Origin: Dehalococcoidia bacterium
GTDB taxonomy: Bacteria > Chloroflexota > Dehalococcoidia > DSTF01 > JACRBR01
Assembly: GCA_038211505.1 (NCBI GenBank)
Contig: JBBQVO010000120.1
Span: 1-10,011, forward strand
Length of the DNA: 10,011 nucleotides
Direction of reading: 5' to 3'
Shown in pieces: positions 1 through 10,011 of this stretch. Under the pieces are notes generated by a model. It was given only the letters and a program-made list of their open reading frames with translations. It was not told the DNA's origin and did not search any database. The number at the start of each line of letters is the position of its first letter. Within the stretch, counting starts at the first letter, position 1. The position numbers were made by a program, and so were the translations under genes.

Positions 1-27
1 GGATCGACGGCGCCAGCTTGATCGCGT

Positions 28-1482
28 TCATCGCTGCGCTTTCGTCGCGCGCGCCGGCTTCGCATCCGCGCCGACCAGCATCGCATTGACCCTCTTACGT
101 GCGCGACGCAGCGCCGCCGTCACCTGCTTCGGCGCCGTGCCGCCGGGCACGTCGCGCGAGCGCACGGACGACATCACGTCGATGCGGCGTGCATCTTCGT
201 CGAACAGCGGCGAGAAGCGGCGCATCTCGTCGAGCGTCAGGCGGTGTAGCTCCATGCCCCTATCTTCGGCATATCGCACGAGCTTGCCGACGGCTTCGTG
301 GGCATCGCGGAACGGGAGGCCTTTGCGGACAAGGTAGTCGGCGAGATCCGTGGCGAGCGAGTAATTTGCGACGGCGGCGATGCGCGCGCGCTTCGCGTCG
401 ATCTCGATGTGCGGGAGCATCGCGGCGAGCACTTCGAGCGTCGACGTGAGGATCTCTTCGGCTTCGAACAGGATCGGCTTGTCCTCTTGCAAATCGCGGT
501 TGTACGACAGCGGCAGGCCCTTGAGCATCGTCAGGATCGCCACAACGCTGCCGATGACGCGCCCGGTGCGGCCGCGCGCCAGCTCGGCGACGTCGGGATT
601 CTTCTTCTGCGGCATGATGCTCGACCCGGTGGCGAAGGCATCGGGCAGGCGGATGAAGGCGAACTCCGCGCTCGACCAGAGCACGAGCTCCTCCGCGAGC
701 CGCGATACGTGGACCATCGCCAGCGCGGCGGCGTTGAGGTAGTCGGCGGCGAAATCGCGATCGGATACGGCATCGATGCTATTCGCGGTGATACCGGCAA
801 AGTCGAGCTCGTCGGCGACCGAAGCGCGGTCGATCGGGTACGGAACGCCGGCGAGAGCGCCGCTGCCGAGCGGCAACTCATCGATCATCTGGAACGCGAA
901 CCCGAAGCGTTTGACGTCGCGCTCGAACATCTCGACGTACGCGAGCATGTGGTGCGCGAAGAGGATCGGCTGCGCGCGCTGCATGTGCGTGTAGCCCGGC
1001 ATCGTCACGTTCTTGTTGGCGTCGGCCAGATCAAGCAACGACGACTGCAGCACGATGAGCCGCGCCATCGCCACGCACGACGCTTGTCGGACGTACATGC
1101 GGAAGTCCGTCGCCACCTGATCGTTGCGCGATCGCGCAGTGTGCAGACGGCCGGCGACGGCGCCGATCTTCGCGCCGAGGCGCACCTCGACGTTCATGTG
1201 CACGTCTTCGAGCTCGGGACGCAGCGTGAAGTCGCCGCGCTCGTATTCGTCGAGGATCTCCTTGAGGCCGCGAACGATCTTGTCCGCGTCGGCTTTCGGG
1301 ATGATGCGCTGGCGGCCGAGCATGCGAGCGTGAGCGATCGACGCCAGCACGTCGTATCGCAGCAGCCGCTCGTCGGCATCAATCGACGATGTGTAGCTTT
1401 CGACGAGGGCGTCCGTCGCCGCGTCGAAGCGTCCGCCCCACGGCTTCGCGCCGTTCGTCGAAGGAGCGGAGGCATCGCTCAT
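28..1482 (-). CDS. argH: Argininosuccinate lyase (ArgH). Likely start is the ATG at 1480-1482 (MSDASAP...KPWGGRF), not the upstream M of the six-frame ORF. Stop is at 28-30.
   Basis: Translation contains the fumarate-lyase/ASL hallmarks: N-terminal WGGRF, TxxSSIMPQKKNPD (GSSIMPQKKNPDVAEL), and full-length collinearity with ArgH (~484 aa). High GC3 coding bias. The ATG at 1480-1482 overlaps the TGA of the upstream gene (ATGA). Confidence 0.9.
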   Translation of the reverse strand: MSDASAPSTNGAKPWGGRFDAATDALVESYTSSIDADERLLRYDVLASIAHARMLGRQRIIPKADADKIVRGLKEILDEYERGDFTLRPELEDVHMNVEVRLGAKIGAVAGRLHTARSRNDQVATDFRMYVRQASCVAMARLIVLQSSLLDLADANKNVTMPGYTHMQRAQPILFAHHMLAYVEMFERDVKRFGFAFQMIDELPLGSGALAGVPYPIDRASVADELDFAGITANSIDAVSDRDFAADYLNAAALAMVHVSRLAEELVLWSSAEFAFIRLPDAFATGSSIMPQKKNPDVAELARGRTGRVIGSVVAILTMLKGLPLSYNRDLQEDKPILFEAEEILTSTLEVLAAMLPHIEIDAKRARIAAVANYSLATDLADYLVRKGLPFRDAHEAVGKLVRYAEDRGMELHRLTLDEMRRFSPLFDEDARRIDVMSSVRSRDVPGGTAPKQVTAALRRARKRVNAMLVGADAKPARATKAQR

Positions 1483-3146
1483 GGGGGCGCCGGCTGCGTC
1501 TTTGCGAGCGCGTCGCTTGCCCCGTGGCGCACCAGCAGATTGAACCACTTGTCCTCCCGGACCTGCACGACGCGGCGGTCGTACTCCGCCGCGAGCCGCG
1601 GGTTGTTGAGCATGTCGACGACGGCCGGGATGAAGACGCGATTCAGGCCCGCGTAGTCCTCGCCCGTCAGCGGCCGCGGCGACAGATCGTCGAACAAGAT
1701 GATGATATCAGGCTGCTGATCGAGCACGTACGCGGAGTCGTATTTCTCGTGGCCAGCGGCGAAGTCGCCGATCTTGATGTCGCGGTGCGCGATATGCTCA
1801 TCGTTGATGCCGAGCATGTCGATCACGGGCAGCTGCGATTCGTAGCCGATGGCGCCGACCGGCACCGCGGCGATGGTCGTCGTGCCGGCGACGTTGCCGC
1901 GCAGCCAGCGGCCGATGTCGGCGCGATCGTCGACCGCGTGACGCTCGCCGGCGATGTTGAGCGCGTCGGTGACCGACGGATGCAACGTGAAGGCGATCGC
2001 GGCGGCGGCGAGGATCATCGCAGCGACGCCGAGCGATCGGCGATTGATGCGCGCGTCGTCGCGAAGCGATGCGATGATCGCGGCCGCGGACGCGACGACG
2101 ATCGCGTAGAACAGCGGCAACACGGGCGCGACGAAGCGGAAGAGCAGCAGCGAATCGCCGCCGACGTAGGCCGTGTACGCGAACCAGGCGACGACCAGCG
2201 CGGCGACGTACGCGCCGGCGGCATGTCGGAGCCGCGGGGTCACGAGCGCGAGCGGCACGAGCAGCAGCAGCCAGCCGCCGTACTGCGACGCGAACGAGAG
2301 CGCGTACTCCAGGCCCCGATTGTACTGATCGATGCCGGAGCCGACCTTGGCGTAGTAGGTGTTCGGGTAGAGCCAGCCATACGTCGCGTACCGCCACCAG
2401 AAGTACGGCACGAACACCGCGGCGAAGCCGGCCGCCCAGACGATGAGGCGCACCACGTCTCCGAGCACACCCATGCGCCGACCGCCACTGCGGGCGCGCG
2501 ATACGACGTCGGCGAGCTTGAAGACGCCCGAGACAGCGAACAGCAACACCCCGTCGGGGCGCGTCATCGCGACGAGCGCCCAGATCGCGCCGGAGATCGG
2601 TGGCGTCCCACGATCGCGCTCGCGGATGTGCAGCAGCACGGCGGCAAGCATCAGCGTCGCAAAGAGCGGCGCTTCGAGGCCGGCGGTCGCCCACAGCGAC
2701 CAGGCGCCGGACGCGGCGAGCAGCAACGCCGCCGCGAGTCCGGCATGTGGCGCGAGATCGTTGTCATCGACGAGGTCGCGCGCGAGCGCGTACGTGCCGG
2801 CGGCGGCGGTGATCGCGAGCCCAAAGCCGAGCCAGCGTCCGGAGACGACGATATCGGCGCAGAAGTCGTGCGCGCCGGCGAGGATCACGACCCAGAGAAA
2901 ATTGGTGTAGCCCTCGACGTGCGCGCCGGGGTTCCAGACGAGGCCGTCGCCGTCCGTGAGATTGCGGGCGTAGCGGTACGAGATGTAGGCGTCGTCGCTG
3001 GTGTAGCGGAAGTAGAAGTACTGAAGCAGCAAGATCGCCGCGGACGCGATGATCGCGGTCGCGGCGTATCGCCCCGTGGTCCGCGCAACGGGCAGCGCTG
3101 CGACGGAGATGCCGAGAACGCCCACGACGAGCCACGGAAAGTTCAT
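1479..3146 (-). CDS. Polytopic membrane glycosyltransferase, GT-C fold, ArnT/PMT-like (GT83/GT39-like), with a ~190-aa C-terminal soluble domain
   Basis: 555-aa ORF with more than 10 predicted hydrophobic helices. First extracytoplasmic loop carries 'SDDAYISYRYARNL', matching the ArnT-type 'DExRYAEIxREM' acidic motif of GT-C transferases. C-terminal ~190 aa are hydrophilic. Stop TGA (1479-1481) overlaps the argH ATG. Antisense ORFs 1389..3179 and 1798..2694 are R/D/G-rich low complexity and rejected. Confidence 0.65.
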   Translation of the reverse strand: MNFPWLVVGVLGISVAALPVARTTGRYAATAIIASAAILLLQYFYFRYTSDDAYISYRYARNLTDGDGLVWNPGAHVEGYTNFLWVVILAGAHDFCADIVVSGRWLGFGLAITAAAGTYALARDLVDDNDLAPHAGLAAALLLAASGAWSLWATAGLEAPLFATLMLAAVLLHIRERDRGTPPISGAIWALVAMTRPDGVLLFAVSGVFKLADVVSRARSGGRRMGVLGDVVRLIVWAAGFAAVFVPYFWWRYATYGWLYPNTYYAKVGSGIDQYNRGLEYALSFASQYGGWLLLLVPLALVTPRLRHAAGAYVAALVVAWFAYTAYVGGDSLLLFRFVAPVLPLFYAIVVASAAAIIASLRDDARINRRSLGVAAMILAAAAIAFTLHPSVTDALNIAGERHAVDDRADIGRWLRGNVAGTTTIAAVPVGAIGYESQLPVIDMLGINDEHIAHRDIKIGDFAAGHEKYDSAYVLDQQPDIIILFDDLSPRPLTGEDYAGLNRVFIPAVVDMLNNPRLAAEYDRRVVQVREDKWFNLLVRHGASDALAKTQPAPP

Positions 3147-3170
3147 CGGCGCGCCACCGTCAGCACGCCG

Positions 3171-3836
3171 CTATTGTAATTGCCATTCGGGGCTGGCGCT
3201 CATGTGGAAGTTGTTGAGCTGCAGCCAGTGCAGCTCCTCATACGGCCGCCCCAGCCCGAAACACAGCAGCACCTCGCCGCCTACCGCCAACTGCTCCTGC
3301 GCCCATCGCACGCGCTCCGGCACCGGCGTACGCATATCGTCGGAGAACAGCCGCACGTCGGTGATCGGCAGATCGAGATCATCCTGCCATTGCAGCCGAA
3401 GCCGGCCTCCGGCGTTGATCCTCACGCGCACGGGGTCCGTCGTGCGAACGATGAGCAACGAGCAGCGACCTTTGCCCTTCGGGACGACGAGGTTCGTGCC
3501 CTGCTGTCGCAAGTCCTTGCCGATCGGTGAGAAGTCATCGACAGCGAGGCGACGTAGTCGCGCGATGAAGTCGGGTCCTGACGACGTCTCGACGGGACGA
3601 ATCGATGCGGGATCGAAGCGCACGTCTTCGACTTCGGGCCGCGATTGACGCGGCGACGTGCGTCCAATATCGATCACGCTACGGAGGTCAAGCGGCCCAC
3701 CGCGACTCGCGAGGAGACGAGCGCTAAGGGCAGATGCTGCGACCGGACGAACGCGGCGATCCTTGTCGACATCGATGCCGGCGACGCAGACGTGACCGTC
3801 CCGCATCCGCGTGAGATCGGTGATCAATACCTTCAT
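3171..3836 (-). CDS. Hypothetical protein, 221 aa, beta-rich, no family recognised. Translationally coupled to the DUF488-like gene immediately upstream of it.
   Basis: ATG at 3834-3836 lies 1 nt after the TAG (3838-3840) of the preceding minus-strand gene. Codon usage (GC3-rich) matches neighbours. TAA stop at 3171-3173, 24 nt before the GT-C start. Translation MKVLITDLTRMRDGHVCVAGIDV... has no motif I can assign confidently. Confidence 0.55.
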   Translation of the reverse strand: MKVLITDLTRMRDGHVCVAGIDVDKDRRVRPVAASALSARLLASRGGPLDLRSVIDIGRTSPRQSRPEVEDVRFDPASIRPVETSSGPDFIARLRRLAVDDFSPIGKDLRQQGTNLVVPKGKGRCSLLIVRTTDPVRVRINAGGRLRLQWQDDLDLPITDVRLFSDDMRTPVPERVRWAQEQLAVGGEVLLCFGLGRPYEELHWLQLNNFHMSASPEWQLQ

Positions 3837-3837
3837 G

Positions 3838-4266
3838 CTACAGATGCTCCAGGCTCGCGCCCCACGCGCGCGAAAGCATTTCAGCGACCAGGCGGCGGTG
3901 ACAATGATCGGCCGAGGCCTCGCTGCAGAGCAACGCCGTCTTGAGCTTGTAGGATTGCGGGTTGAGAGCGCCCGGCAGGCTCCGCTCGATCATCAATGCG
4001 AGGAATCCTCGCTCGTAGGCGGCCCAGTCCTTGGTACTTCGGTACTGCTTTAGCAAATCGTCGTTCGGCGCGAGGCGGAGATCGTGCGCGTACGCTATCT
4101 CCGCGCCCGCCAGGAAGAACTCCAGATCGTCGCGCTTCGCGAATCCATCGAGTTGCGATGTGTTGCGTAGACGCACGTCGACGACGCGTTCGACACCGGC
4201 GCCGGTCAGCCGTTCAAAGAAGTGCTGCGCTGAGGTCCGCGTGAAGCCGATCGTCGCGAGTTCCAC
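3838..4266 (-). CDS. DUF488-like family protein (142 aa), uncharacterised conserved family
   Basis: MELATIGFTRTS...VERVVDVRLRNTSQ...GFAKRDDLEFFLAGAEIAYAH...ALLCSEASADHCHRRLVAEML. This matches my recollection of the DUF488 (PF04343) pattern TIG[HY]S...F...L...VDVR..P.S...F...L...GI.Y.H...LG...LLCxE..P..CHR. Conserved Cys/Glu/His are present. Confidence 0.6.
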   Translation of the reverse strand: MELATIGFTRTSAQHFFERLTGAGVERVVDVRLRNTSQLDGFAKRDDLEFFLAGAEIAYAHDLRLAPNDDLLKQYRSTKDWAAYERGFLALMIERSLPGALNPQSYKLKTALLCSEASADHCHRRLVAEMLSRAWGASLEHL

Positions 4267-4817
4267 GTGATGCCTTGCTCAAACGGTCCCGACTGCACGG
4301 CGATCGACTCCTCCGGCATGCACAGCCCATCGCCCCGGATGTGCACGATTTTGGATCGCGGCCAGTCTTGAAGCGAGAGAGCGCGCGCCACGAGCAAGTG
4401 ACGATGACATCCGAGCGGACTCTCTTCGGAGCACATGAGCGCGATCCGTTGCTTGGTCGCCGCTCGCATCAACCGTCGCAGCCCGGCGCGAAACCGCTCA
4501 CTTTCGCTCCACTCGTAGTACAGCACATGACGTTCGGCGTCGTAGAACTGCGAGTTTGTCGGCCTACCGCCCAGCGAGTCACCCATGTACGCGTACCGAA
4601 ACCCGGCGCGCGTTAGAAGCGCCGCGAGCGGTCGGCGACTGAATTGCGGCGCGAAACGTGAGACGGGATGAGAGCGGACATCGACCACGACTTCAACGCG
4701 ATAGGGCATGAGCAGCGCTACGAAAGATTCGAAGGAAATGCTGGAGTGGCCGATCGTGAAGATGACCGGCGAACTGATATCCATACACGCGCCCAGATCG
4801 ACAAGGCTCGCAAACAT
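4206..4817 (-). CDS. DUF488-like family protein, second divergent paralog (~203 aa from the ATG at 4815-4817; alternative starts at 4862 or 4784), with a ~55-aa C-terminal tail
   Basis: ...PVIFTIGHSSISFESFVALLMPYRVEVVVDVRSHPVSRFAPQFSRRPLAALLTRAGFRYAYMGDSLGGRP...ALMCSEESPLGCHRHLLVARAL. Same motif set as the downstream paralog at ~35-40% identity. The ATG at 4817 sits 11 nt after the HAD gene TAG (4829-4831). The 3' end overlaps the next DUF488 gene by 61 nt in another frame. Local GC is lower (~50-58%). Confidence 0.55.
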   Translation of the reverse strand: MFASLVDLGACMDISSPVIFTIGHSSISFESFVALLMPYRVEVVVDVRSHPVSRFAPQFSRRPLAALLTRAGFRYAYMGDSLGGRPTNSQFYDAERHVLYYEWSESERFRAGLRRLMRAATKQRIALMCSEESPLGCHRHLLVARALSLQDWPRSKIVHIRGDGLCMPEESIAVQSGPFEQGITWNSRRSASRGPQRSTSLNG

Positions 4818-4828
4818 ACGTTCTGATT

Positions 4829-5659
4829 CTACTCGAAAATAGGCAGTTCTGTCATCTCCCACAGCGTGTGGATCGTGTATTCGGGCGTGATGCTTTCGTC
4901 GTGTGCGTAGTCGCCGAGGGCGCGGCCGGTCTGTGCTCGCGTTGCAGGCAGATCGGGCGGCACTTCGCCTACCTGCTCTGCTTCGTGCTTCGGATCGGGT
5001 TTGAGGACGACGCGCCAGATCGCCATCATGCCGAGCGCCTGCGACGCCGCGACATCTGCGCGGAGCGAGTCGCCGACCATCACAGTCTCGTTCGCGGCGA
5101 TGTGCATCTCGTCGAGCACATGTTGAAAAATCTGAGCGTGCGGCTTCATGTAGCCGAGATCGCAGGAGACCGCGGTCGATTCGAAGTAGCGGTCAAGGCC
5201 AAGCTCGCGCATTTCCTCGATGAAGCGCGGGCCGCCGAAGACGCGGTTCGTGACACAGCCGAGTCGGTAGCCGTGATCGCGCAGCCAGTCGAGCGTGGCG
5301 AAGGCGTCGTCGAACATCGTCCGGCCGAGCGTCAGCCCGCCGAGATTCCAGGCGTCCCACAATTGCGCGCCCTGCTCGAGCGTCACGTTCAAGCCCATGC
5401 CGTTGGCGATGTCACGGACAACGGAGTTGAAGTCGGGGCTGATGCAGTCGCCCTCGTACGCGGCGCGGTCGGCGCGCTCGACGCCGAGACGGATCTCGCG
5501 GCCGAGGAAGCGCAACTCGCCGTCGAGCGGGATGCCCCACTCCTTCAGCACGCCGCCGATGCGGCTCATCGTTTGCGTGCGAATCTCCATCGCCGGCGGC
5601 AGCTTCGGGAAGTGCCAGAGCGTGTCGCCTAGATCGAACAGGACTGCCTTGATCGCCAT
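4829..5659 (-). CDS. HAD-superfamily (subfamily IA-like) hydrolase/phosphatase
   Basis: All four HAD motifs are present: motif I 'VLFDLGDTLW' (DxD), motif II 'GCVTN', motif III Lys in 'GYMKP', motif IV 'VGDSLRADVAAS'. The ATG at 5657-5659 is preceded by GGAGG (complement of 5666-5670) at 6-nt spacing. The six-frame ORF's first codon is TTG at 5660-5662. Confidence 0.85.
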   Translation of the reverse strand: MAIKAVLFDLGDTLWHFPKLPPAMEIRTQTMSRIGGVLKEWGIPLDGELRFLGREIRLGVERADRAAYEGDCISPDFNSVVRDIANGMGLNVTLEQGAQLWDAWNLGGLTLGRTMFDDAFATLDWLRDHGYRLGCVTNRVFGGPRFIEEMRELGLDRYFESTAVSCDLGYMKPHAQIFQHVLDEMHIAANETVMVGDSLRADVAASQALGMMAIWRVVLKPDPKHEAEQVGEVPPDLPATRAQTGRALGDYAHDESITPEYTIHTLWEMTELPIFE

Positions 5660-5824
5660 CAATCGCCTCCGCCGCGAGGATAGCGAGCGCGCGCGCGACG
5701 GGCCACCACCGCCGCCCGCGCGCCATAGACGCTAGCTCGGAGTGCGATCTATGATCGATCGAGCGGTTACGAATATGTTGCCATCTGCGCGACGAACGTG
5801 ACTGCTGCTGAAAGGAGAGCCGGA
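5660..5824. promoter_or_regulatory. Divergent intergenic region between the HAD operon (-) and the flotillin gene (+). It should hold promoters for both and contains the flotillin RBS AAAGGAGAG (5811-5819).
   Basis: ~165-bp non-coding gap between divergently oriented start codons. Strong Shine-Dalgarno 6 nt before the ATG at 5825. Weak sigma70-like hexamers (TTGCCA 5778-5783, TATGTT 5774-5779) are not convincingly spaced. 8-bp palindrome TCGATCGA at ~5753-5760. Confidence 0.35.
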
Positions 5825-7873
5825 ATGGCTCCGCTCGCAATCCTGATCATCGTGCTTGTCGTGCTGGTCGTGTTTCTGTTTCTCGTGTTCTTCAGCGGCA
5901 TGCTGGTGAACGTCGGCGGCCAGCAGATCGGCGTTATCGAGCGCCGATTCTGGGGTAAGTCGCTGCCGGAGTCGCGCGTCGTCGCCATGCGCGGCGAGAT
6001 CGGCATCCAGGCGCGCGTGTTACAGCCGGGTCTCGCGATTTTGCCGCCGTTCATCTACAAGGTCTCCAAGGACGACATGCTCGTCATCGCCGAAGATGAA
6101 GTCGGGCTGCTGGAGTGCATCGACGGCCGGCCCCTCGAGCCGGGCCACATCTTCGGACGGCACGTCGAGGGCCACGATTCGTTTCAGGACGGCGAAGGCT
6201 TCCTGCGCAACGGGGGCCAGAAGGGGCCGCAGGTCGATATCCTCGCGCCCGGCAAGTATCGCATCAACACGTATCTCTTCCGCGTGCGGACGGAGCCAGC
6301 GCTCATCGTGACGCAGGGACAGGTTGGCGTCGTCAGCTCGCGCGACGGCGATCCGATGGCGTCCGGGCGTCTGCTGGCTCAGAAGGTCGACGGCCACCTG
6401 GGGTTCCAGAACGGCGAGGCGTTCTTCCAGGCGGGCGGCCAGCGCGGACCGCAGATCGAGGTGATCTTCCCCGGCCGCTACCGGATCAACATGGATCTCT
6501 TCAACGTCGAGGTGCAGCCGGCGACGATCGTGCAGGCGAACCAGGTCGGTCTCGTGACGGCCAAGGACGGCTCTCCCCTGCCCGGCGGCGAGCTCGTCGC
6601 CGCGACGGTGCCGAATCACAACGACTTTCAGGACGCGTCGGCGTTTCTCTCGAACGGCGGACAGCGCGGGCCGCAGTACGATCTGCTGAAGCCGGGCACG
6701 TACTACATCAACCCGCTGATGTTCGATGTGAAGCTCGATAACGTCGCCGTCGTCCAGCGCGGCGAGGTGGCGGTGCTGGTGTCGAACGTCGGCAAGGAGC
6801 CGGAGGACATTCCGATGTCGGAGCGGCTTGCCGGCAAGGAACGTTATGTCGTGCCAGCCGGCTTCCGTGGCATCCAGGCCGAGGTCGCCGGTCCCGGCGT
6901 CTATTATCTGAACCGCTGGGCGTACATCGCCTACATCATCCCGACCACCAACCTGACGATCGACTGGGCCGAGGAGAGCGGCACCGCGCCTGATGACGAC
7001 GGCGCCGGCGGCAACACGAACGCCAGCGGCGGCATCCGGCGCGCCCAGCTCTTCAACCCGCTGGCCGTCATCAGCCGCGAAGGCTTCGAGATGCGGGTCG
7101 GCGTCAAAGTCGTCATCCGTGTGCGGCCGGAGCAGGCGCCGCTGATGGTGGCGAAGATCGGCTCGATCGAGAACCTCATCGACCATGTCGTGCACCCGAT
7201 GATCGACTCGTCGTTCCGCAACCAGGCGTCGTCGTCGGAAGCGATGAACTTCATGCAGGATCGCGCCGATGAGCAGGCGAAAGCGGAAGCGCGTACGCGC
7301 GAGGAACTCGAGAAGTACCACGTCGAATGCGTCTCGGTGTTAATCTCGCAGATCATCCTGCCGCAGGAACTGATGGAGATTCACACGCGGCGCGTCATCG
7401 CCGCGCAGCAGCAGGACATGTTCGTCGAGCAGCAGAAGTCGGAAGAGAAGCGCATCGACACGGAGAACACGCGCGCCAAAGCCGACAAGCAGCCGGAGCT
7501 CGTGGCGGCGCAGATCTCGGTGCAGGTAGCCGAGCAGACAAAACAGCGCACGATCCTCGAAGCCGAGGGCCGCGCGCGTGGCATCGAAGTCGAAGGCGAG
7601 GCCGAGGGCACACGGATTCTCGCCATCGGCACCGCCACGGCGGAGGCGTACGAGAAGCAGGTCGCAGCCGTCGGCCAGGCGAATCTCGCCGGCATCGAGG
7701 TAACGAAGTCGATCGCTGGTGCCGGGCTGAAGATCACGCCCGAGATCAACATCGCCGGCGGCGACAACGGTGGCGGCAATATTTTCTCGGCGTTCATTGC
7801 CCAGTTGATGTCGCAGAACCGCAACGGCGGCGCCGGCACGAACGGCAGCGCCGGGACGCCGCCGCAGACGTAG
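5825..7873 (+). CDS. SPFH (band-7)/flotillin-family membrane protein, 683 aa, with an expanded internal repeat region
   Basis: N-terminal hydrophobic hairpin (LAILIIVLVVLVVFLFLVFF). SPFH start motifs 'VNVGGQQIGVIERRFWGK' and 'LQPGLAILPPFIYKV' match stomatin's 'VDEYERAVIFRLGR' and 'GPGLFFIIPIFEKAV'. SPFH C-terminal half 'REELEKYHVECVSVLISQIILPQELMEIHTRRVIAAQQ'. Flotillin-like Glu/Ala-rich tail 'EAEGRARGIEVEGEAEGTRILAIGTATAEAYEKQ', ending IAGGDNGGGN. Start chosen at the ATG at 5825 (SD AAAGGAGAG), not the GTG at 5798. TAG at 7871-7873. Confidence 0.75.
   Translation: MAPLAILIIVLVVLVVFLFLVFFSGMLVNVGGQQIGVIERRFWGKSLPESRVVAMRGEIGIQARVLQPGLAILPPFIYKVSKDDMLVIAEDEVGLLECIDGRPLEPGHIFGRHVEGHDSFQDGEGFLRNGGQKGPQVDILAPGKYRINTYLFRVRTEPALIVTQGQVGVVSSRDGDPMASGRLLAQKVDGHLGFQNGEAFFQAGGQRGPQIEVIFPGRYRINMDLFNVEVQPATIVQANQVGLVTAKDGSPLPGGELVAATVPNHNDFQDASAFLSNGGQRGPQYDLLKPGTYYINPLMFDVKLDNVAVVQRGEVAVLVSNVGKEPEDIPMSERLAGKERYVVPAGFRGIQAEVAGPGVYYLNRWAYIAYIIPTTNLTIDWAEESGTAPDDDGAGGNTNASGGIRRAQLFNPLAVISREGFEMRVGVKVVIRVRPEQAPLMVAKIGSIENLIDHVVHPMIDSSFRNQASSSEAMNFMQDRADEQAKAEARTREELEKYHVECVSVLISQIILPQELMEIHTRRVIAAQQQDMFVEQQKSEEKRIDTENTRAKADKQPELVAAQISVQVAEQTKQRTILEAEGRARGIEVEGEAEGTRILAIGTATAEAYEKQVAAVGQANLAGIEVTKSIAGAGLKITPEINIAGGDNGGGNIFSAFIAQLMSQNRNGGAGTNGSAGTPPQT
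6182..6847 (+). repeat. Intragenic tandem repeats: three clear ~74-aa (222-nt) protein-level repeats (R1 6182-6403, R2 6404-6625, R3 6626-6847) inside the flotillin-like gene. Degenerate copies flank them (R0 ~5993-6181, R4 ~6848-6967).
   Basis: Aligned units: FQDGEGFLRNGGQKGPQVDILAPGKYRINTYLFRVRTEPALIVTQGQVGVVSSRDGDP / FQNGEAFFQAGGQRGPQIEVIFPGRYRINMDLFNVEVQPATIVQANQVGLVTAKDGSP / FQDASAFLSNGGQRGPQYDLLKPGTYYINPLMFDVKLDNVAVVQRGEVAVLVSNVGKEP. DNA-level identity is only moderate, so this is an old duplication. Confidence 0.7.
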
Positions 7874-7938
7874 GATCGTCGAGGGACTGCTGCGGAGCTG
7901 ACATCGTGTTGAGAGAGAGCGTGCGCGCACGACGATCG

Positions 7939-8029
7939 CTCACCCCGGCCTTCGGCCACCCCTCTCCCTCAAGGGGAGAGGGGATCGTTTCGGCGATTTG
8001 AAGCTGAGACCGGGAGACTTTCAAGACAA
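7939..8029 (+). repeat. Intergenic structured repeat element, copy A (~90 nt), between the flotillin stop and the SGL start
   Basis: 'ctcaccccggccttcggccacccctctccc-tcaag-gggagaggggatcgtttcggcga' followed by '...gaagctg...agactttcaagacaa'. It shares ~80% identity over ~90 nt with 9615-9705, including a 29-nt exact block and a 22-nt exact block. Confidence 0.7.
7947..7996 (+). terminator. Candidate intrinsic-terminator-like hairpin pair: GGCC-UUC-GGCC mini-hairpin (7947-7957) plus a 10-bp stem with 5-nt loop (7959-7983), followed by AUCGUUUCGGCGA
   Basis: Perfect 10-bp GC-rich stem cccctctccc/gggagagggg with loop tcaag, 66 nt after the flotillin stop. The U-tract is weak (UUU), as is common for high-GC terminators. 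Confidence 0.35.
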
Positions 8030-8071
8030 TGGTGCCATGGGCGCGCGACGGCAGTTGAGGCGGAGGACACC

Positions 8072-8914
8072 GTGGGTGAGACGACGATCGTGCTTGACGC
8101 GCTCGTGTTTCCGGAGTGCCCGCGATGGCACGATGGGAAGCTCTGGTTCTCGGACGTGCATGCGCACCAGGTTCGGACGCTGGCGCCGGATGGTACGTCG
8201 GCGGTTGAGGTCGACGCGCCGTTGCAGCCCGCGGGGCTCGGATGGCGGCCGGACGGGACGCTGCTGGTCGTGAAGATGGCGGAGCGGCGATTGATGCGGC
8301 TCGCGGGCGGCGAGCTCATCGAAGTCGCCGATCTCAACGCGATGGAGGATGTGTCGCTCAACGACATGGTCGTCGATGCGTCGGGCCGCGCATACGTCGG
8401 CGCGTTCGGGTTCGACATCAACATCGGGCAGCCGTTGAAGCCTGCCAGCATCTTTCTCGTACAACCTGACGGCACGGCGAGCGTCGCGGCGAACGACCTG
8501 CTCTTTCCGAACGGCATAGTGATCACGCCCGACGGCCGCACGCTGATCGTCGCCGAGACGGCCGGTCGCCGGCTGACCGCGTTCGATGTCGCGACCGACG
8601 GATCGCTGAGCGGCCGACGCGTGTGGGCGGCGCTCGATGTGTTTCCTGACGGCATCTGTCTGGACGAGGAGGGCGCGGTGTGGGTCGCGTCGCCGGTCAC
8701 GGGTGAGTGCGTCCGCGTACGCGAGGGCGGCGAGGTGTTGGAGCGCGTGAAGGTTGCGGCGCGCGGCGCGTACGCCTGCATGCTCGGTGGCGAGGATCGC
8801 CGGACGCTGTACATGTGCACGGCGACGACGACGGGGCCGGAGCTTGCGAAGGGCATCTCGGTCGGGTGGATCGAGTCGGTGCATGTCGAGGGTGCGGGCG
8901 TTGGCTTGCCGTAG
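8072..8914 (+). CDS. SMP-30/gluconolactonase/LRE-like (SGL) beta-propeller protein. GTG start with GGAGG RBS.
   Basis: Translation carries SGL-family blade motifs: 'PECPRWHDGKLWFSD', 'NDMVVDASGRAYVG', 'LLFPNGIVITPDGRTLIVAETAGRRLTAFDV', 'PDGICLDEEGAVWVA'. The GTG at 8072 is preceded by GGAGG (8062-8066) at 5-nt spacing. TAG at 8912-8914. Overlapping minus-strand ORFs 7969..9084 and 8021..9094 are rejected as antisense artefacts. Confidence 0.8.
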   Translation: MGETTIVLDALVFPECPRWHDGKLWFSDVHAHQVRTLAPDGTSAVEVDAPLQPAGLGWRPDGTLLVVKMAERRLMRLAGGELIEVADLNAMEDVSLNDMVVDASGRAYVGAFGFDINIGQPLKPASIFLVQPDGTASVAANDLLFPNGIVITPDGRTLIVAETAGRRLTAFDVATDGSLSGRRVWAALDVFPDGICLDEEGAVWVASPVTGECVRVREGGEVLERVKVAARGAYACMLGGEDRRTLYMCTATTTGPELAKGISVGWIESVHVEGAGVGLP

Positions 8915-9051
8915 GCGGCGCGATGATGTCCATTCGTCGTGATGCGTCCGCGGCCCATCGCGCATGACGCCTCCGACAATGAGCGCTTCGTCGCCGCGCG
9001 GTAGTGCGAATGTACCTTGGCGATTCCTCGCCCGTCGCCGACTATGGTGGC

Positions 9052-9501
9052 ATGATTCAAGCTCACGCCGCGCTTCCGACTCATCGCCGATCATTGTGGG
9101 GCGCGCTCCTGCTGGAGATCGCGCCCGTGTTGGCGCCGGTCCTCGCGATCTCCGCGCTCGTCGGCCTGCTCTTGCTCGATCCGCCGTTGGTGGTCGCGCA
9201 GGTGCTCGTGACGCCGTTGTTCTTCGCGTGCTTCCTGTTCTTCCTGTCGGGGATGGGCTGGCTGTACGCCGGGGAACAGCGGATCGGGATCGCGTTGATG
9301 ATCGGACGCGGAGTCGCGGCGATGGCGCTCGCTTCGTTTTCGTTTCGCGCGCTGGGCGAAATCGACTGCGGTCGGAGTTGCGCGGGGCCGACCGATGTCG
9401 CGATTATCCCGCTGCTCTTCGTCGCCGTCGGCGTGCCGATCGTGTCGACGATCATGCTGGGCGTCGCGATGGTCGCCCAACGCTGGCGAGTAGACGGCTG
9501 A
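9052..9501 (+). CDS. Small hypothetical integral membrane protein (~4 TM helices). Start is uncertain: ATG 9052, ATG 9010 or GTG 9004.
   Basis: Four hydrophobic segments (LWGALLLEIAPVLAPVLAISALVGLLLL; VLVTPLFFACFLFFLSGMGWLY; IGIALMIGRGVAAMALASF; VAIIPLLFVAVGVPIVSTIMLGVAMV). High GC3 codon usage consistent with coding. No family recognised. The antisense ORF 9091..9636 is charged low-complexity and rejected. Confidence 0.5.
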   Translation: MIQAHAALPTHRRSLWGALLLEIAPVLAPVLAISALVGLLLLDPPLVVAQVLVTPLFFACFLFFLSGMGWLYAGEQRIGIALMIGRGVAAMALASFSFRALGEIDCGRSCAGPTDVAIIPLLFVAVGVPIVSTIMLGVAMVAQRWRVDG

Positions 9502-9614
9502 ACGATGATTGCGCAACGTGAGCGTGCGCGCCTCCAAGGAGTGGCTCGGAAAACGCACGCAGTTGGGCTTAGGCCCGACGCGTACGAGGATGAACGTCTC
9601 GTGGCAGCCGCCCA

Positions 9615-9705
9615 CCTCACCCCGGCCTTCGGCCACCCCTCTCCACGTTGTGGAGAGGGGATCGTTTCGGCGAGGGGAAGCTGGCGCGAAGAGACATTCA
9701 AGGCA
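9615..9705 (+). repeat. Intergenic structured repeat element, copy B (~90 nt), in the convergent gap between the membrane-protein gene and the right-edge minus-strand gene
   Basis: 'ctcaccccggccttcggccacccctctcca-cgttg-tggagaggggatcgtttcggcga' followed by '...gaagctg...agacattcaaggcaa'. Same orientation and same two-hairpin core as copy A. Confidence 0.7.
9623..9672 (+). terminator. Candidate (possibly bidirectional) terminator-like hairpin pair: GGCC-UUC-GGCC (9623-9633) plus a 10-bp stem with 5-nt loop (9635-9659), followed by AUCGUUUCGGCGA
   Basis: Stem cccctctcca/tggagagggg with loop cgttg. Located 114-171 nt downstream of the plus-strand stop at 9501 and 55-104 nt downstream of the minus-strand stop at 9727. 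Confidence 0.35.
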
Positions 9706-9726
9706 ACGCCGGGGAGAGTCGAAGGT

Positions 9727-10011
9727 TCAGCCGACGCCGGCGCGTTGCGGCTCGGGCGCTGGGGCGGTGGCGCGTTCGGGCTCGTCGGCCATCTGGTTGC
9801 GTTCGTAGTAGAGGCGAATCAGGGCGTCGGCGAGCTTCTTTGAATCGTGGCGGTAGCGGTTCTCTTCGGCGATGACGTCGGCCTTGACGACGCGCGCGCC
9901 GTCGAGGTTCATCTCGTCGATGCGCACCGGTTCCGAATGCCACTCTTCCGGCAGCGTCGCCTCGGTGTTGCTGTTGGCGAGGACGAAGTCGAACGGCGCG
10001 TCGCCCTTCAG
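9727..10011 (-). CDS. Partial CDS, 3' end only: C-terminal ~94 aa of an unidentified protein whose frame runs off the window edge
   Basis: Open minus-strand frame from the window end to TGA at 9727-9729 (...LKGDAPFDFVLANSNTEATLPEEWHSEPVRIDEMNLDGARVVKADVIAEENRYRHDSKKLADALIRLYYERNQMADEPERATAPAPEPQRAGVG*). GC3-rich codons. Convergent with the plus-strand genes. No family assigned. Confidence 0.5.
   Translation of the reverse strand: MKGDAPFDFVLANSNTEATLPEEWHSEPVRIDEMNLDGARVVKADVIAEENRYRHDSKKLADALIRLYYERNQMADEPERATAPAPEPQRAGVG

Follow-up and report, generated by a model that had tools for sequence, protein, structure and literature searches.

Which genes in a tightly packed bacterial gene run form a functional unit, and what might that unit do? 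The question is raised by a locus in a 10,011-nucleotide stretch of Dehalococcoidia DNA (Chloroflexota; GenBank assembly GCA_038211505.1, contig JBBQVO010000120.1, positions 1 to 10,011), which is referred to as the window. An earlier reading of the letters without database searches (the sequence-only reading) had singled out four minus-strand genes, encoding a haloacid dehalogenase (HAD) phosphatase, two tandem DUF488-like paralogs and an unknown 221-aa protein, and had proposed that they form an undescribed, co-translated module, possibly acting on a phosphorylated small molecule or nucleotide derivative. All four open reading frames (ORFs) are present. We found that three of them, here called DUF488-long, DUF488-N3a (N3a for short) and DuOB, form a widely conserved trio and that the HAD gene is a bystander. 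We give about an even chance to the interpretation that the trio is a self-contained chromosomal variant of PDC-M45, a candidate system of the PADLOC collection, and works as a nucleic-acid-directed, Cys-dependent end- or adduct-processing complex.

A Pfam scan assigned all three proteins to families. As predicted, both paralogs matched DUF488 (PF04343), the short one with 74.0 bits (E 2.2e-20) and the long one with 78.0 bits (E 1.2e-21), for a gathering threshold of 22.2. The short paralog also matched PF22751, DUF488-N3a, the "active DUF488-N3 subclade" (44.1 bits, E 2.9e-11, threshold 27), against which the long paralog reached only 17.4 bits; the latter is therefore not an N3a protein. The 221-aa protein, called unknown before, matched PF22557, DuOB or "dual OB-containing domain", with 46.3 bits (cut-off 27), its residues 3-207 aligning to positions 3-207 of the 210 in the profile. 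The two paralogs are more divergent than the 35-40% identity first estimated (31% over 138 residues), and the C-terminal extension of the long one, put at ~55 residues, was found to be ~43 residues past a conserved HIRGDG motif. The motif said to be shared holds for C.E...CHR, which both proteins have, whereas TIGHS and D.RS.P.S are confined to the long paralog and the short one carries TIGFT and VDVRLxNxS. The long paralog, whose invariant residues were taken over 72 orthologs, is marked by TIGHS, D.RS.P.S, LGG.P and CSEE.P..CHR, then HIRGDG and the tail; N3a is marked by TIGFT, D.R, S and LLCSE....CHRR. Each paralog has two invariant Cys.

The association of the three genes extends far beyond the window. 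DuOB homologs were first obtained from metagenomes, a profile scan limited to a single genome for each species then gave 80 loci, and the six-frame ORFs of all 80 were searched with the window proteins. DUF488-long, N3a and DuOB lie on one strand and in that order in ~72 of the 80, in Dehalococcoidia, Ktedonobacterales, Chloroflexia, Rubrobacteraceae and other Actinomycetota, Planctomycetota, Armatimonadota, Verrucomicrobiota, Thermodesulfobacteriota and candidate phyla. The proposal that the paired paralogs and a dedicated third protein form a unit was thus borne out across several phyla. Clustering of the flanking ORFs revealed no flanking gene conserved across phyla, synteny being kept within lineages only: 22 Rubrobacter loci have common flanks, Planctomycetes have ScpB upstream, and Dehalococcoidia have the HAD gene upstream and argH downstream. 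At a DuOB identity of at least 60%, 30 Rubrobacteraceae loci fall into one cluster. Housekeeping neighbours of the trio include argH, ScpB, IspF, CysS and MnmA.

We surveyed the 124 immediate neighbours of the trio in 33 loci that were non-redundant at 60% DuOB identity and found 156 different Pfam families. Those recurring in at least three neighbours were RecQ domains (DEAD, Helicase_C, RQC, RecQ_Zn_bind, HTH_40, HRDC), a DNA methylase and generic TPR. RecQ stands beside the trio in 5-6 of the 33 loci, from two phyla; the full-length protein (DEAD, Helicase_C, RecQ_Zn_bind, RQC, HRDC) adjoins it in Ktedonobacterales and Pirellulales (loci L013, L020, L026, L053, L069 and L077), in three different orientations. 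An N6/N4 DNA methylase flanks the trio in 3 loci, and no further partner conserved across phyla was detected in the survey beyond these two. Almost all PADLOC matches among trio neighbours were RecQ-like helicase cross-matches. In one Anaerolineales metagenome-assembled genome (MAG; L006, JBHHUI010000006, 3290-5087), the trio lies between a cysteine desulfurase-like Aminotran_5 gene and MnmA (tRNA 2-thiouridylase), the desulfurase/DUF488-long and DuOB/MnmA junctions each being a 4-nt overlap. This arrangement is either a hint at a link to sulfur or tRNA or the result of insertion into a common desulfurase-MnmA pair.

The HAD gene does not share this conservation pattern. Among the 80 loci, only those of the closest Dehalococcoidia relatives have it beside the trio, and the 25 Pfam families found most often among the 124 neighbours, down to families with 2 members, include no HAD family. 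Conservation of the HAD protein itself far exceeds that of the trio, with >100 clusters at 70-82% identity and with orthologs at 76-82% identity being common, which suggests a resident housekeeping gene. In three relatives with 76-80%-identical HAD orthologs, the trio is absent: L128 and L129 have argH directly after the HAD gene, and L131 has a 56%-identical ortholog of the 555-aa membrane protein of the window, whose GTG overlaps the HAD stop codon, followed by argH. Neither DUF488 nor DuOB was found by tblastn on these three long contigs. Because the HAD gene meets argH or the 555-aa gene directly in relatives, the trio represents a ~1.7-kb indel between resident genes; no direct or inverted repeats flank the insertion. 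The sequence-only reading had stated that absence of the partnership from related genomes would speak against it, and synteny separates its two parts: the trio stays together, while the HAD partnership is absent outside one Dehalococcoidia group. The cassette does not include the HAD phosphatase, and dropping this gene removes a misleading lead toward small-molecule metabolism.

What type of protein are the DUF488 paralogs? Their structural models have a Rossmann-like alpha/beta fold akin to protein tyrosine phosphatase (PTP), dual-specificity phosphatase and rhodanese domains. In Foldseek searches the matches of highest probability were to SsoPTP (0.94-0.99), with no match at E < 1e-3, and the predicted structures also recovered diphthine-synthase/TP-methylase (tetrapyrrole-methylase N) domains and RapZ-C. 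PDB searches with the N3a sequence and the N3a profile returned no relevant solved DUF488 structure. Each paralog has an invariant Cys at the end of a beta-strand, followed by an eight-residue loop with an invariant Glu and then by an invariant Cys-His-Arg at the start of a helix; in N3a, C114 closes the strand 110-114 and the helix begins at H123-R124. This Cys-loop-Arg arrangement resembles PTP and rhodanese active sites, though with the spacing C-X9-R. The fold class of DUF488 takes in rhodaneses. E. coli YeaO is a member of the large DUF488 family; in a CRISPR-adaptation screen, the effect of a yeaO deletion was not reproducible. No function established by experiment was found in the searchable literature for members of the DUF488/DuOB trio, in line with the earlier statement that the family has no assigned biochemical function.

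DuOB contains two OB-fold barrels, and the structural neighbours of its predicted structure are single-stranded DNA (ssDNA)-binding OB proteins. The family is large, with 1,552 clusters (50% identity) at E <= 0.001, and the window protein belongs to a divergent subfamily: its BLASTP comparison with the DuOB of a viral locus (L089) was not significant, whereas HHalign joined the window-DuOB clade to canonical DuOB with a probability of 96.2% (E 2.6e-9, 182 columns). Cys17, Arg30, Glu70, Thr159 and Asp160 are invariant in both subfamilies, together with Arg-Pro and Ser positions. Some members are fused to other domains, HRDC at the C-terminus in one case (P0200, 318 aa) and HTH or sigma-70 region 4 in others (P0159, P0160).

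DUF488-long matched the PADLOC model PDC-M45B (E 3.1e-47) and N3a matched PDC-M45C (E 1e-50). The window DuOB matched no PADLOC model, even at E 10, nor did any other window gene in a scan made without the argH and SMP-30 genes. The A component was recognised on viral contigs. A search of IMG/VR with the N3a profile found 40 contigs of viral or proviral origin, 35 of which have a ~230-aa protein beside the DUF488 genes (33 upstream and 2 downstream of N3a). In L089 this protein adjoins B and C and matches PDC-M45A (2.7e-87) as well as Pfam DuOB (1.1e-66); PDC-M45 therefore consists of DuOB, the long DUF488 protein and N3a. The canonical DuOB subfamily surfaced through the N3a scan only, a DuOB pattern scan of viral contigs having returned nothing. 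In a viral variant found in 25 loci (within L095-L125, e.g. L110 5317-7040), DuOB and N3a are followed by an mSLOG+DUF4326 fusion that replaces the long DUF488 protein, and the DuOB is of the canonical PDC-M45A type. DUF4326 has been described as a clade within the rhodanese-phosphatase superfamily predicted to process terminal phosphates on the ribose of ADP-ribose derivatives (PMC9503650). In 12 of the 25 variant loci, a 643-aa protein is encoded ~1.3 kb from the cassette, which we take from its sequence to be large-terminase-like.

The gene layout in the window (Table 1) places the cassette between resident genes. Transcription on the minus strand runs through HAD, DUF488-long, DUF488-N3a, DuOB, the 555-aa gene and argH. 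The ORF of DUF488-long (4862..4206, minus) is open up to a GTG at 4862. The 11-nt gap originally given between HAD and this gene presumes a start at ATG 4817; ATG 4784 is favoured because the orthologs are called at 192 aa, and the gap is then 44 nt. The 1-nt spacer between the N3a stop and the DuOB start was confirmed (TAG c ATG), with GGAG 10 nt upstream. For the trio, this spacer and the overlap of the two DUF488 genes suggest translational coupling and probably a heteromer, so that the predicted co-translation may stand for these three genes. A sigma-70-like consensus scan gave 2 sites where 0.8 were expected, as consensus matches only; the promoter-like site, which lies shortly upstream of DUF488-long at the HAD 3' end, is suggestive of the trio having its own promoter. 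The 555-aa protein gave only a weak NCBIfam match, to arabinofuranosyltransferase, and is possibly GT-C-like (glycosyltransferase-like).

Table 1. Positions of the trio and of the features around it in the window.
Feature	Position	Strand	Remarks
argH	28..1548	minus	Downstream of the 555-aa gene
555-aa polytopic membrane protein	1479..3146	minus	Resident gene on the other flank, outside the cassette
DuOB (dual OB-fold) protein, 221 aa	3171..3836	minus	PF22557
DUF488-N3a (PDC-M45C-like), 142 aa	3838..4266	minus	GTG start; Pfam and PADLOC PDC-M45C
DUF488-long/N3a overlap, 61 nt	4206..4266	minus	Out of frame (N3a in the -1 frame)
DUF488-long (PDC-M45B-like), 192 aa	4206..4784	minus	From ATG 4784; PF04343; PADLOC PDC-M45B E 3.1e-47
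Promoter-like site	4826..4855	minus	ATGACA, 18-nt spacer, TAGAAT; 10/12 consensus matches
HAD-IA hydrolase	4829..5662	minus	Pfam PF00702 E 1.4e-19; resident flanking gene, outside the cassette

The overlap of the two DUF488 genes is a conserved feature. In most loci across phyla (besides the window, L011, L014, L021, L027, L030, L053, L074 and others), the stop of the long gene lies 49 nt downstream of the first base in the N3a TIGFT codons, being made from the codon of the invariant N3a residue Leu20 and the next base. Because of this overlap, the N-terminal codons of N3a largely set the long paralog's basic, Ser-rich tail. In all clades the N3a start position has a GGAGG-type Shine-Dalgarno sequence ahead of it. 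Given the conserved 61-nt overlap and the lack of canonical starts in Rubrobacter, fusion of both DUF488 genes by a programmed -1 frameshift was considered and, for the window, rejected: a stop interrupts the -1 frame 8 codons ahead of TIGFT, and the open stretch that follows contains GTG 4266, 4 codons ahead of TIGFT and with AAGG upstream. The conserved GGAGG also speaks against such a fusion.

At the N3a start position, ACG was found in 27 loci, 26 from the Rubrobacter clade and 1 from a "proteobacterium" MAG (L052, Rubrobacter marinus NZ_CP045121, ~6556; L015, L018, L022, L023, L025, L031, L033, L036, L078 and others), and never ACC, ACA or ACT. These loci have a GGAGG-type Shine-Dalgarno sequence 6-9 nt upstream, with small variants in a few, and no ATG, GTG or TTG before the first beta-strand; sister loci have ATG at the same position. 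This looks like conserved near-cognate ACG initiation of N3a, and gene callers would truncate or miss such genes.

Two further features lie elsewhere in the window. A ~91-nt repeat occurs in two intergenic regions (7939-8029 and 9616-9706, 81% identical), its copies flanking an SMP-30/gluconolactonase gene and the gene of a 165-aa membrane protein. It holds a GC-rich hairpin (CCCCTCTCC...GGAGAGGGG), yields spurious ORFs on both strands and looks like a repetitive extragenic palindrome (REP) or a miniature inverted-repeat transposable element (MITE). On the plus strand, 5798-7873 encodes a 691-aa SPFH/Band-7 protein with three tandem ~95-aa repeats before the Band-7 domain; these have the motif [SGD]FQ[DN]..[AG]F...GGQ[KR]GPQ, then PG.Y.IN...F.V, and gave no Pfam match.

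The above findings led us to a model in which substrate, chemistry, heteromer formation and biological role are what we infer for the trio. DuOB would bind single-stranded or terminal DNA, possibly RNA, through its two OB folds, nucleic-acid binding being proposed because of the OB fold itself, the HRDC, HTH and sigma-70 region 4 fusions and the RecQ adjacency. It would recruit both DUF488 paralogs, probably acting as a heteromer. These would be Rossmann-like Cys enzymes of the PTP/rhodanese type, with the Cys at the strand end, the loop and the C-H-R helix cap forming the putative active site, and would transfer or remove (hydrolyse) phosphoryl or ribose-phosphate groups at nucleic-acid termini or adducts. 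In the lineage of the window, the role may lie more in nucleic-acid maintenance than in a mobile defence island. Several observations weigh against this model. The loop is C-X9-R and not the canonical C-X5-R; RNA, oligosaccharides and proteins are further ligands of OB folds; RecQ adjoins the trio in only ~15% of the non-redundant loci, four of the six cases coming from one order; and members of the same families lie on phage or prophage contigs and carry a defence-candidate label.

How do other explanations account for the same data? The original four-gene pathway, in which the HAD protein, the two DUF488 proteins and the 221-aa protein would act on a phosphorylated small molecule or nucleotide derivative, draws on the HAD gene lying 11-44 nt upstream on the same strand, on its position beside the trio being kept in the closest relatives, including those with other outer flanks, and on HAD phosphatases replacing rhodanese-phosphatase enzymes in some ADP-ribose-processing systems (PMC9503650). 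Set against this are the absence of HAD from the trio surroundings outside one Dehalococcoidia group, the HAD orthologs coupled straight to the next resident gene without the trio, a HAD-trio spacing that varies from 31 to >300 nt in relatives, and the promoter-like site between them. The small-molecule substrate is likewise unsupported, since the dedicated partner is a dual OB-fold protein with ssDNA binders as neighbours and sometimes an HRDC or HTH fusion, and we regard the pathway as very improbable. A sulfur relay appears slightly better placed, though still improbable: the DUF488 pair would be rhodanese-like sulfur carriers with a persulfide on the conserved Cys, thiolating tRNA or DNA with DuOB. 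The L006 arrangement with its 4-nt overlaps, a cysteine desulfurase-like gene ~2 kb upstream in Planctomycete loci, the two invariant Cys per paralog and the presence of rhodaneses in the fold class all agree with it. The desulfurase link is, however, limited to these two lineages, and the Planctomycete gene lies on the other strand, separated from the trio by ScpB. Desulfurase-MnmA pairs are moreover a common housekeeping arrangement into which the trio may have inserted; the 33-locus survey showed no conserved association of the trio with an ATP-pyrophosphatase or another activating enzyme, and structurally the paralogs match phosphatases and methylases best, not rhodaneses.

More weight belongs to the possibility, which we nevertheless consider unlikely, that the trio is an anti-phage defence system (PDC-M45) sensing invading nucleic acid or attacking it, for instance through blockage or modification of phage DNA ends. 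Virus-host conflict is favoured because of the PDC-M45 label and the phage-borne versions: the B and C matches are strong, PDC-M45A is DuOB, and DuOB accompanies N3a in the IMG/VR contigs. The patchy distribution across phyla, the trio being an indel between resident genes and the methylases flanking it in 3 loci point the same way. The PDC systems are, on the other hand, candidates only, and we found no study testing PDC-M45 in the literature. The neighbours of the trio, with their 156 Pfam families, show recurrence of only RecQ domains, DNA methylase and TPR; their PADLOC matches are almost all RecQ-like cross-matches, and the other scanned window genes are unmatched. A phage cassette beside a putative terminase suits a phage-encoded function at least equally well. 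Synteny is also vertical and stable in Rubrobacteraceae, Planctomycetes and Dehalococcoidia, and a role in repair or maintenance is favoured because of this synteny, the housekeeping neighbours and RecQ. Within the end- or adduct-processing model, a more specific version can be formulated, which we put forward as speculative and rather unlikely: the chromosomal trio would be a previously unrecognised housekeeping DNA-repair module in which the ssDNA-binding dual-OB subunit targets a heteromeric PTP/rhodanese-fold Cys pair to blocked or adducted DNA ends, phages carrying a version of their own for protecting or processing genome termini. It draws on stable inheritance in radiation-resistant Rubrobacteraceae, Planctomycetes and Chloroflexota, sometimes next to RecQ. 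We know of no PTP/rhodanese-fold Cys chemistry at blocked or adducted ends in DNA repair.

With end- or adduct-processing as the preferred reading, the linkage of the trio narrows the search for DUF488 substrates to nucleic-acid ends or adducts and provides a clean three-protein set for biochemistry. It also ties one DUF488 branch to a dual-OB protein predicted to bind DNA, and links the trio with a defence candidate in PADLOC and with phage versions that carry mSLOG-DUF4326.

Comparison with known systems places the components as follows. Cys-based PTP and dual-specificity phosphatases whose substrates are nucleic-acid ends or sugars, such as the baculovirus RNA 5'-phosphatase BVP, PIR1 and laforin, have a C-X5-R loop, whereas the DUF488 pair has C-X9-R and a second invariant Cys-His; there is no detectable sequence similarity between them, and DUF488 comes as two paralogs with an OB-fold partner. 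Compared with the tandem-OB proteins RPA, TEBP-alpha, Teb1 and HIN-200, at most ~130 of the 221 DuOB residues align, at an identity of <16%, and the set of invariant DuOB residues suggests more than passive binding. Burroughs and Aravind reportedly defined, in 2023, a RapZ-C-DUF488-DUF4326 clade and predicted DNA-end processing in conflict systems for it, which we treat as a lead and not as a result. The PTP-type, diphthine-synthase/TP-methylase and RapZ-C matches obtained here fit such a clade, as does the sister viral system that swaps in DUF4326, and nothing contradicts it.

The closest counterpart is PDC-M45, itself a candidate defence system. Its A, B and C components are DuOB, long DUF488 and N3a, the same families as in the window, whose three proteins exceed the Pfam gathering thresholds for DUF488, DUF488-N3a and DuOB, and both sets are tightly packed on one strand. 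The window DuOB is divergent from PDC-M45A, being tied to it by the Pfam profile and HHalign alone. The order in PDC-M45 is commonly A, B, C, whereas it is B, C, DuOB in the window, as also in the viral loci L098 and L101; B and C overlap by 61 nt in the window and by 0-4 nt in viral PDC-M45 loci; and PDC-M45 is found on prophage and phage contigs, the window trio among chromosomal housekeeping genes. To call the system undescribed was thus an overstatement, since Pfam already covers its families and PADLOC lists the trio as a candidate. The new points are the divergent DuOB subfamily, the mostly B, C, DuOB order with its 61-nt B/C overlap, the wide chromosomal distribution of the trio and the identification of the HAD gene as a bystander.

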